Below are positions 7,563 through 8,892 of a stretch of 64,000 nt of DNA, piece after piece. The stretch is taken from NCBI RefSeq assembly GCF_003334405.1, contig NZ_QOWM01000003.1. One strand, written 5' to 3'. The notes below the pieces were generated by a model. The model was not told the origin of the DNA. It worked only from the letters and a program-made list of their open reading frames with translations, and made no database searches. Position numbers and translations under genes: made by a program. The stretch's first letter is position 1. Each line of letters begins with the position of its first letter. Source of the stretch: Escherichia coli (GTDB lineage: Bacteria; Pseudomonadota; Gammaproteobacteria; Enterobacterales; Enterobacteriaceae).

Positions 7563-7841
7563 ATGGCACGCAACGCAAAATATTACAATTCTGATAATTC
7601 GCCCGTTCTTGCCTGCACGCACGGGCGGTATTCTCACGCATTCAAGTCTGAATGGTTCCAGCACCCTCCATGCACTGCAGAACAGGCCGAATGGCTGATT
7701 CATTCTTACCGCAGGCGCGGGTTCGAGGTTAAGAAAGCTCTCAGTCTCGACTATCGGCACTGGATAATCTCTGTCAGGCTGCCTTATTCCGAACGCCCAC
7801 CACGTGCGTCCCGCACTTTCCAGCAACGGATCTGGAGGTAA
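7563..7841 (+). CDS. hypothetical protein (92 aa) upstream of ydfU
   Basis: ATG with GGAGAA RBS; ends 1 nt before the likely GTG start of ydfU. Confidence 0.5.
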   Translation: MARNAKYYNSDNSPVLACTHGRYSHAFKSEWFQHPPCTAEQAEWLIHSYRRRGFEVKKALSLDYRHWIISVRLPYSERPPRASRTFQQRIWR

Positions 7842-7842
7842 C

Positions 7843-8892
7843 GTGCGGGTATTACTTAGACCTGTTCTGGTGCCTGAGCTTGGGCTGGTGGTCCTTAAGC
7901 CGGGCCGTGAATCCATACAGATATTTCATAATCCTCGAGTGCTGGTGGAACCGGAACCAAAAAGCATGCGTAATCTGCCATCCGGAGTCGTTCCTGCCGT
8001 TCGCCAGCCGCTGGCGGAAGACAAAACATTGCTGCCGTTTTTTAGTAACGAACGGGTGATTCGTGCTGCTGGCGGCGTTGGCGCATTGTCCGACTGGCTA
8101 TTACGTCATGTTACATCCTGCCAGTGGCCTAATGGCGATTACCATCACACTGAAACAGTCATTCACCGTTATGGTACCGGCGCAATGGTGTTGTGCTGGC
8201 ACTGCGACAACCAACTGCGTGACCAGACATCGGAATCACTGGAGCTGCTTGCTCAACAAAATCTGACAGCATGGGTGATTGACGTCATCCGTCACGCAAT
8301 AAGCGGTACGCAGGAGCGGGAATTATCTTTGGCTGAATTATCCTGGTGGGCGGTCTGCAATCAGGTGGTGGATGCACTACCTGAGGCTGTATCGCGTCGT
8401 TCGCTGGGATTACCAGCGGAAAAAATCTGCTCGGTGTACCGCGAAAGCGACATCGTACCGGGAGAGCAGACCGCCACCAGCATATTGAAACAACGCACAA
8501 AAAATCTTGCACCGTTGCCTTACGCCCACCAGCAACAAAAATCACCACAGGAAAAGACGGTGGTAAGCATCACCGTTGATCCAGAGTCTCCGGAATCTTT
8601 CATGAAGCTGCCTAAACGTCGCCGCTGGGTTAAGGAGAAATACACACGTTGGGTTAAGACACAGCCGTGTGCTTGCTGCGGTATGCCAGCCGACGATCCG
8701 CATCATCTGATTGGTCACGGGCAGGGCGGAATGGGAACAAAAGCACATGATCTCTTTGTGTTGCCTTTGTGCAGAAAGCATCACAACGAGCTGCATACGG
8801 ATACAGTGGCATTTGAAGATAAGTATGGCTCCCAACTGGAGCTGATATTTCGTTTTATCGATCGCGCGCTGGCAATTGGCGTACTGGCGTAA
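7843..8892 (+). CDS. ydfU: YdfU (DUF968) with C-terminal HNH-like Cys/His motif
   Basis: 349 aa from GTG 7843 (ORF track starts 13 codons earlier at 7804). C-terminus QPCACCGMPADDPHHLIGH...LCRKHHNELH resembles an HNH zinc-finger nuclease motif. Confidence 0.75.
   Translation: MRVLLRPVLVPELGLVVLKPGRESIQIFHNPRVLVEPEPKSMRNLPSGVVPAVRQPLAEDKTLLPFFSNERVIRAAGGVGALSDWLLRHVTSCQWPNGDYHHTETVIHRYGTGAMVLCWHCDNQLRDQTSESLELLAQQNLTAWVIDVIRHAISGTQERELSLAELSWWAVCNQVVDALPEAVSRRSLGLPAEKICSVYRESDIVPGEQTATSILKQRTKNLAPLPYAHQQQKSPQEKTVVSITVDPESPESFMKLPKRRRWVKEKYTRWVKTQPCACCGMPADDPHHLIGHGQGGMGTKAHDLFVLPLCRKHHNELHTDTVAFEDKYGSQLELIFRFIDRALAIGVLA

Follow-up and report, generated by a model that had tools for sequence, protein, structure and literature searches.

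We analysed a 64,000-nucleotide stretch of Escherichia coli DNA (the window; RefSeq assembly GCF_003334405.1, contig NZ_QOWM01000003.1), with particular attention to two adjacent genes on its forward strand: a small open reading frame (ORF) of 92 codons and ydfU, which encodes a DUF968 protein. The window is the Qin cryptic prophage of E. coli K-12, and the 1.8 kb around the pair shows 100% identity to K-12 strains. The annotated gene order is dicA/dicC ... flxA, ydfV, relB, relE, hokD, rem, 'hypothetical protein', ydfU and ydfT (Q antiterminator), followed by cspF, cspB, ynfU, essD, ydfR and rrrQ. An earlier note, made from the sequence of this DNA, had placed the pair just upstream of Q. Its observation is confirmed, and the Q gene (ydfT/quuQ) starts at 8906, 13 nucleotides past the ydfU stop codon. 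The best-supported description of the small ORF and ydfU is that of a translationally coupled unit of a nin-like recombination region, and most likely they form a co-translated nin-region recombination nuclease module. The features of the pair, with the downstream neighbour last, are as follows.

7552..7555 (+), GGAG Shine-Dalgarno sequence of the small ORF, read from the sequence, 7 nucleotides 5' of its ATG
7563..7640 (+), N-terminal extension of the small ORF (codons 1-26), present only in the Escherichia/Shigella members recovered; predicted to be disordered, with a predicted local distance difference test (pLDDT) score of about 50, and without protein-level constraint
7641..7841 (+), conserved core of the small ORF (residues 27-92 and the stop codon), PHROG 1212; predicted beta-alpha-beta-beta fold and basic tail PRxSRTFQQRIWR
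7834..7838 (+), GGAGG Shine-Dalgarno sequence of ydfU within the last two codons of the small ORF, TGG AGG (Trp-Arg); the coupling junction
7843..8892 (+), ydfU (b1560), 349 residues, GTG start, stop codon at 8890-8892; DUF968 / PHROG 96
8005..8427 (+), YdfU residues 55-195, the N-domain, mostly helical with a beta-hairpin and helix; AlphaFold2 pLDDT 85-93
8428..8628 (+), YdfU residues 196-262, a linker predicted to be disordered, of variable length
8575..8593 (+), recurrent mosaic breakpoint in ydfU at the boundary of linker and HNH domain; megablast edges at query position 1394 (end) or 1376 (begin) in many genomes
8629..8889 (+), YdfU residues 263-349, predicted zinc-stabilised beta-beta-alpha-Me (HNH) nuclease domain
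8906..9658 (+), ydfT/quuQ, Q-type antiterminator directly 3' of ydfU (phrog_127, E = 2.9e-105)

A single base (C, 7842) separates the TAA stop codon of the small ORF (7839-7841) from the ydfU GTG at 7843. This spacing of one nucleotide had been taken in the earlier note as a sign of translational coupling, and it is not peculiar to Qin: among intact IMG/VR pairs of the 92-residue type on contigs that were long enough, the YdfU homologue starts exactly one nucleotide after the stop codon in 73 of 73, which argues that the arrangement is more than chance. We preferred 7843 over an upstream in-frame GTG at 7804 as the ydfU start because the same Met/Val begins all 16 aligned homologues and the upstream GTG is found in only about half of the loci. 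The junction looks alike before YdfU and before two other phage nucleases, YbcO and NinG, consisting of TGG-(A/G)GG or TGG-GGT, a stop codon, one or two nucleotides and the start codon. Because this junction is common to the three types, the last two residues of the small protein double as the Shine-Dalgarno sequence of the nuclease gene. Single-copy database proteins of 438 and 607 residues resemble read-through or frameshift fusions of the small ORF with YdfU or of YdfU with Q, and are probably sequencing or pseudogene artefacts.

The small ORF (7563..7841) is a real gene and encodes a basic protein. It appears as hypothetical protein WP_012304870.1 in the RefSeq annotation of K-12 derivatives made with the Prokaryotic Genome Annotation Pipeline; in the MG1655 reference (NC_000913.3) its position, complement 1,644,306-1,644,584, is unannotated and lies in a 346-nucleotide gap between ydfU and rem. 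Its product matches PHROG 1212 (E = 1.7e-35), a family without an assigned function whose 66-position profile covers residues 27-92. Among 1.84 billion cluster representatives, a full search with HMMER yielded only 99 relatives, mostly of 66 residues. Full-length forms of 92 residues were recovered from Escherichia and Shigella only; homologues outside these two genera are about 66 residues long and begin at the position of residue 27. Phe27 stands in for the ancestral ATG of the 66-residue form, and the translation start is therefore 7563. Across 30 distinct coding sequences, the ratio of nonsynonymous to synonymous polymorphism (pN/pS) was 0.13 for codons 26-92, where variation falls mainly on third positions, and about 1.5 for codons 2-25; synonymous diversity was oddly low in the extension (pS 0.06, compared with 0.29 elsewhere in the ORF). 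The C-terminal tail of the protein (...PRPSRTFQQRIWR) is near-invariant, and because synonymous sites vary while the residues hardly do, it is the protein that is constrained and not just the DNA that is identical. The remaining five frames carry stop codons in most or all of the 30 variants. An antisense ORF of 137 codons (7503..7916, reverse strand), which overlaps the whole small ORF, was rejected as a real gene on this ground, with stop codons in 22 of the 30.

AlphaFold2 modelled residues 28-75 of the small protein with a pLDDT of about 95. The family is basic, with a median isoelectric point of 9.6 and a value of 10.6 for the Qin core. The small ORF had no match in Pfam, NCBIfam or PADLOC, and none of 42 family members had a Pfam match at E <= 0.001. 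It is not NinE or NinF, its positional analogues in DLP12 and phage lambda, nor NinD or NinH, as hidden Markov model comparisons with lambda NinD, NinE, NinF, NinG and NinH all scored below 0 bits; P1 PdcA/Fdc was likewise discarded as a homologue, the sequences being unrelated. A homologue in phage vB_EcoS-813R8 is labelled 'toxin to Rem', a label for which we found no basis. Phage N15 carries an unannotated homologue (NC_001901.1, 35939-36151) between the Q-like gene 40 and gene 41, whose annotation is that of a DNA polymerase exonuclease subunit; the homologue ends a few nucleotides before gene 41.

YdfU itself matches Pfam DUF968 (E = 2.5e-76, residues 160-346) and the PHROG 96 family 'HNH endonuclease' (E = 2.8e-171), and weakly HNHc_6 (1.3e-5, residues 271-328); it had no match in NCBIfam or PADLOC. 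The Cys/His spacing of HNH endonucleases, which the earlier note had recognized in the C terminus, lies at residues 276-318 (nucleotides 8668-8796) as C276-A-C-C279-G ... D-P-H287-H288-L ... H302-D303 ... C310-R-K-H313-H314-N315-E-L-H318. On the basis of alignment with YbcO-like proteins and IscB, C276, C279, C310 and H313 would be the zinc ligands, H288 the general base, and D303, N315 and H318 metal-binding or positioning residues. C276 and C310 are invariant or nearly so among homologues, and the CxxC ... CxxC/H residues of a treble clef are present. H288, D303 and H318 align with motif residues of YbcO and IscB and are kept in lambdoid-type homologues, and the HNH residues are retained in such homologues from Escherichia, Shigella, Klebsiella, Yersinia, Hafnia and Providencia; the homologue of Vibrio phage Len keeps the His/Asp residues and lacks two of the four zinc-site cysteines.

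The AlphaFold2 model of YdfU was built on an alignment of 16 sequences and has a mean pLDDT of 69, with the first 54 residues poorly defined. The structures nearest to its HNH domain are the active nucleases Ref, Cap5, IscB and McrA, P1 Ref being the closest. Foldseek against afdb50 returned DUF968 family members only. Searches of PDB sequences with the single YdfU sequence and with a full-length profile gave no match, and a C-terminal profile match to 3g27 (6.6e-27) was discarded as circular, the profile having included YbcO-like sequences. Profile, beta-beta-alpha-metal fold, and catalytic and zinc-site residues all place YdfU in His-Me finger group 7. The HNH assignment is correct but already published: Jablonska et al. 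2017 (PMC5714182) defined group 7 as DUF968 plus DUF1364 and named YdfU (NP_416078) as a member, described RusA and Q as neighbours and proposed a role in recombination or repair like that of NinG and Ref, and Kaur and Subramanian 2016 had predicted nuclease function for YbcO.

The N-domain (residues 55-195) had no relative by Pfam (other than the start of DUF968), by PDB sequence search or by hhalign. Its alignment shows C93, Q94, C118, W119, D122 and N123 to be invariant or near-invariant. These residues form a cluster, C93-Q94 ... C118-W119-(H)-(C/H)-D122-N123 (window 8119-8211), on the beta-hairpin and helix, and the Cys/Asp cluster (residues 93-123) may be a second metal site. We rejected the idea that residues 93-125 are a second, degenerate HNH motif derived by internal duplication, as hhalign of the N- against the C-domain gave a probability of 0.4% and H109 is not conserved. 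The linker ends in a basic stretch, KLPKRRRWVKEKYTRWVK (isoelectric point 11.1), that continues into the start of the HNH domain. Close to this boundary lies the mosaic breakpoint listed above, and in two YdfU variants (P0170 and P0199) the sequence that follows VDPESP is replaced by another one. E. coli prophages exchange the N-terminal part of the protein and its nuclease domain independently. The two genes also recombine independently of each other: small-ORF and YdfU identities are decoupled, with 98.9% for the one alongside 82.5% for the other and, elsewhere, 92% alongside 98.9%. Of 5426 complete E. coli genomes, 4920 contained DNA matching the module, the maximum being 11 copies in one genome, and the left edge of the module lies 17 nucleotides upstream of the small-ORF ATG. 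One relative, the inducible Escherichia phage PhiR42_1, is 99% identical.

To see which genes accompany the small-ORF family, we recorded the gene directly downstream of it in 209 fetched loci; these are related prophages, and the counts are not independent events. NinG/Rap followed in 74 loci, YdfU in 74 (plus a few truncated copies) and YbcO in 31, with RusA in one and something else in about eight. The small ORF adjoins a His-Me nuclease in about 180 of about 195 evaluable loci, at small-protein identities down to about 38-40%. The NinG representative of the census has 46% identity to lambda NinG (E = 4e-56). The same substitutions were seen in individual phages, in which a 66-residue relative lies directly before a 51%-identical YdfU homologue (Klebsiella phage Kp4865-4), before a YbcO-like protein of 97 residues followed by RusA and Q (phiES15 and mEp237) or directly before NinG/Rap (Edwardsiella phage GF-2). 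The census identifies one exchangeable 'nuclease slot' in the nin regions of lambdoid phages, filled by NinG/Rap, YbcO or YdfU. YdfU had RusA as its immediate downstream neighbour in 31 of 73 loci and YbcO did in 10 of 25, whereas NinG never did (0 of 74). Rap and RusA are alternative junction nucleases, which fits the absence of NinG-RusA neighbours. These data suggest that group 7 proteins complement Holliday-junction resolution rather than duplicate it.

YbcO (from DLP12 and phage 82; DUF1364; PDB 3g27) belongs to His-Me finger group 7, like YdfU, and the HNH domains of the two are homologous; YbcO, with about 96 residues, is the nuclease domain alone, whereas YdfU has about 260 additional N-terminal residues comprising a folded domain and the disordered basic linker. 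P1 Ref, a RecA-dependent HNH nuclease (PDB 3plw; RecA_dep_nuc), bears a strong structural likeness to YdfU but differs in domain architecture and lies outside a nin region. This likeness is not family membership, as the match of YdfU to RecA_dep_nuc (PF16786) is below threshold (E = 0.02, score 15.5, residues 268-316 only). Lambda NinG/Rap is in the same His-Me finger superfamily and holds the same position relative to the small ORF and Q, and a role in recombination is the working model for both proteins; NinG (PF05766) is nevertheless a different family, which the Pfam scan did not match to YdfU, so that the equivalence is one of position only. In Listeria and Staphylococcus phages, the Orf-HNH fusions (HNHc_6; Curtis et al. 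2014) end in a zinc-finger HNH domain from the same clan, but their N terminus is a single-stranded-DNA-binding domain like Orf/NinB, a similarity that neither Pfam nor PDB sequence searches revealed in the YdfU N-domain.

More distant members of the YdfU family were also found. Full-length homologues occur in many temperate phages, and PdcB of P1, Upf95.7 of P7 and orf98 of D6 have 26% identity to YdfU over 91% of the length. They share the N-domain motifs PFF..., CQ and LCWHxDN with YdfU, and the P1 and P7 genes likewise lie just upstream of a late-gene activator, in the order phd-doc-pdcA-pdcB-lpa-pacA-pacB. Unlike ydfU, the genes of this branch are preceded by PdcA/Fdc, which is unrelated to the PHROG 1212 protein, and in the P1/D6 proteins the HNH motif is missing its HH pair and terminal His. 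P1 pdcB was nonessential by CRISPR interference and by deletion, whereas lpa, pacA and pacB are essential. With the addiction module phd-doc directly on one side of the P1/P7 homologue, and lpa (the late activator) and pacAB directly downstream on the other, this order parallels relBE-hokD ... ydfU-Q in Qin.

We favour, with slightly better than even confidence, an explanation in which the small ORF and ydfU are a co-transcribed, coupled pair, YdfU being a nuclease that acts on recombination or replication intermediates and the small protein an accessory factor. The two genes would be transcribed together in the nin-like early-right region of the Qin lambdoid prophage, and ribosomes that finish the small ORF would be delivered onto the ydfU start codon. 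YdfU would most likely nick or cut DNA recombination or replication intermediates during lytic growth, filling the slot that is held elsewhere by NinG/Rap or YbcO, often just before RusA, and its N-terminal domain and basic linker may supply binding to DNA or to a partner. The small protein would probably be an accessory to the same DNA transaction and not an inhibitor specific to one nuclease; its lack of specificity is compatible with a DNA-directed role shared among the nucleases, or with the absence of any partnership. The analysis itself shows that the small ORF is a gene, as well as the geometry of the coupling, the fold, the conservation of the motif and the sharing of the slot; nuclease activity, its substrate and physical contact between the proteins are inferred. 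It is also conceivable, although we consider it unlikely, that the PHROG 1212 protein is a dedicated coupled subunit or regulator common to NinG/Rap, YbcO and YdfU nucleases. Such a subunit might target the nucleases to branched DNA or restrain them until their substrate appears, and if this were true, phage recombination nucleases long known as 'single-protein' enzymes would be two-component in many phages.

Several observations weigh against the favoured explanation, beginning with the relatedness of the census loci. At one locus a NinX gene and another small ORF stand between the small-ORF homologue and YbcO, a copy in PY54-like elements is flanked by RdgC, and copies in N15 and a metagenomic contig lie upstream of DnaQ-like exonucleases. 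In the other direction, the YdfU homologues of SfV, YeP2, Hafnia yong2, Providencia PSTCR8lys, Vibrio Len and P1 lack the small ORF and follow other genes; the upstream neighbour of lambda NinG is NinF, which is not of the small-ORF family, and DLP12 YbcO likewise has another small gene upstream. Because the small ORF has other neighbours and many YdfU and NinG genes occur without it, its linkage to the nuclease is strong but facultative, and it is neither necessary nor specific. The decoupled identities of the two genes count in the same direction. YdfU and YbcO are also not simple equivalents of Rap, since RusA often accompanies them and never NinG, and the motif loss in the P1/D6 branch suggests that part of the YdfU family may be non-catalytic. 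Qin is a cryptic prophage, and the searchable literature contained no nuclease assay or experimental study of YdfU, YbcO, DUF968 or DUF1364.

Much of this evidence would be expected if the small ORF were merely a neighbour, either an independent nin-region gene or a leader ORF that feeds ribosomes to the next gene, and if its adjacency to His-Me nucleases reflected conserved gene order and a shared mosaic junction rather than partnership. We give this alternative somewhat less than an even chance. Small proteins at least 74% identical occur before NinG or YbcO, with a junction that is identical up to the nuclease start codon, and the two identities in the YdfU pairs are decoupled. Some copies of the small ORF adjoin NinX, RdgC, unknown genes or DnaQ-like exonucleases, and many YdfU, NinG and YbcO genes occur without it. 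Moreover, packed nin-region genes commonly overlap or abut the gene upstream, as in YeP2 and Providencia, where YdfU overlaps a 269-residue gene. Set against a mere neighbour are the strong purifying selection on the residues of the small protein, including its C-terminal tail, in the presence of synonymous variation, and the persistence of an adjoining His-Me nuclease across small-protein identities that fall to about 38-40%. Another alternative concerns YdfU: its Cys/His motif could be a non-catalytic treble-clef zinc finger and the protein a DNA-binding or regulatory one. The loss of the HH pair and terminal His in the P1/D6 branch would fit, as would an Arsenophonus family member annotated 'phage transcriptional regulator' and a literature in which the family is without a nuclease assay. 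From Escherichia to Vibrio, however, the lambdoid branch keeps the His of the general base, the D/N residues and the terminal His, and the nearest structures (Ref, Cap5, IscB and McrA) are active nucleases; we regard this alternative as rather improbable.

The earlier note had gone beyond the HNH reading, which stands, to two suggestions that fared less well. One was that YdfU might be a packaging accessory nuclease; in the manner of HK97 gp74, it would aid the terminase in cutting concatemers. The HNH fold and the position of the P1/P7 homologue pdcB two genes upstream of pacA/pacB are compatible with this. A gene of the HK97 gp74 type would adjoin terminase and portal genes and be needed for cos cleavage, however; in Qin, ydfU is followed by Q, csp genes and a lysis cassette, and in all lambdoid relatives the gene belongs to the nin region, with RusA and/or Q and then lysis genes after it and no terminase. 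YdfU also swaps position with the recombination nuclease NinG, and P1 pdcB is dispensable where lpa, pacA and pacB are not. The nin-region position and the nonessentiality of pdcB make a packaging role very improbable indeed. The other suggestion was a part in phage-phage competition. We considered it in the form of a defence, exclusion or addiction module, in which YdfU would be a toxic nuclease directed at competing phages or the host and the small protein its immunity protein or antitoxin. The toxin-antitoxin modules nearby are the sole positive evidence for this; neither protein had a PADLOC match, Pfam scans found no sensor or translocation domains, and the genes lie inside the early-right operon rather than in a separately transcribed moron. 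An arrangement like that of colicin DNases and their Im proteins is likewise not what the census showed, as the small-protein family precedes three nuclease families, does not co-vary with the nuclease and is missing beside many nucleases, including many YdfU homologues. That the small protein accompanies more than one nuclease family argues against a relationship of immunity or antitoxin, and we regard this alternative as distinctly improbable.

In the reference strain of E. coli, ydfU counts among the y-ome genes, and the module is very common. Our finding adds little to the HNH assignment as published, and is mostly ordinary overall; what is modestly new is an unannotated gene under selection and its conserved coupling to three nuclease families. 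Three points may be of use. A small gene under purifying selection is absent from the MG1655 reference annotation; its family is joined by the same stop/Shine-Dalgarno/start junction to three His-Me nuclease families; and RusA coexists with YdfU and YbcO but not with NinG, which hints at a task for group 7 nucleases other than Holliday-junction resolution. Together they offer a concrete route to testing the function of YdfU and YbcO, and are unlikely to overturn anything.

Other features of the region were noted in passing. An Rfam scan gave no family overlapping the pair; it matched a cspA thermoregulator (158.8 bits) at window positions 10432-10824 on the forward strand, covering the leader and start of cspB. 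Just past hokD lies a strong intrinsic-terminator-like hairpin, AACCCGCTTCGGCGGGTT, with a T run (7097-7114, forward strand), followed by a promoter-like site upstream of rem (7137-7166, forward strand). A weaker promoter-like site (7482-7509, forward strand) lies where rem ends, ahead of the small ORF. In one strain the region carries an IS1414 insertion.

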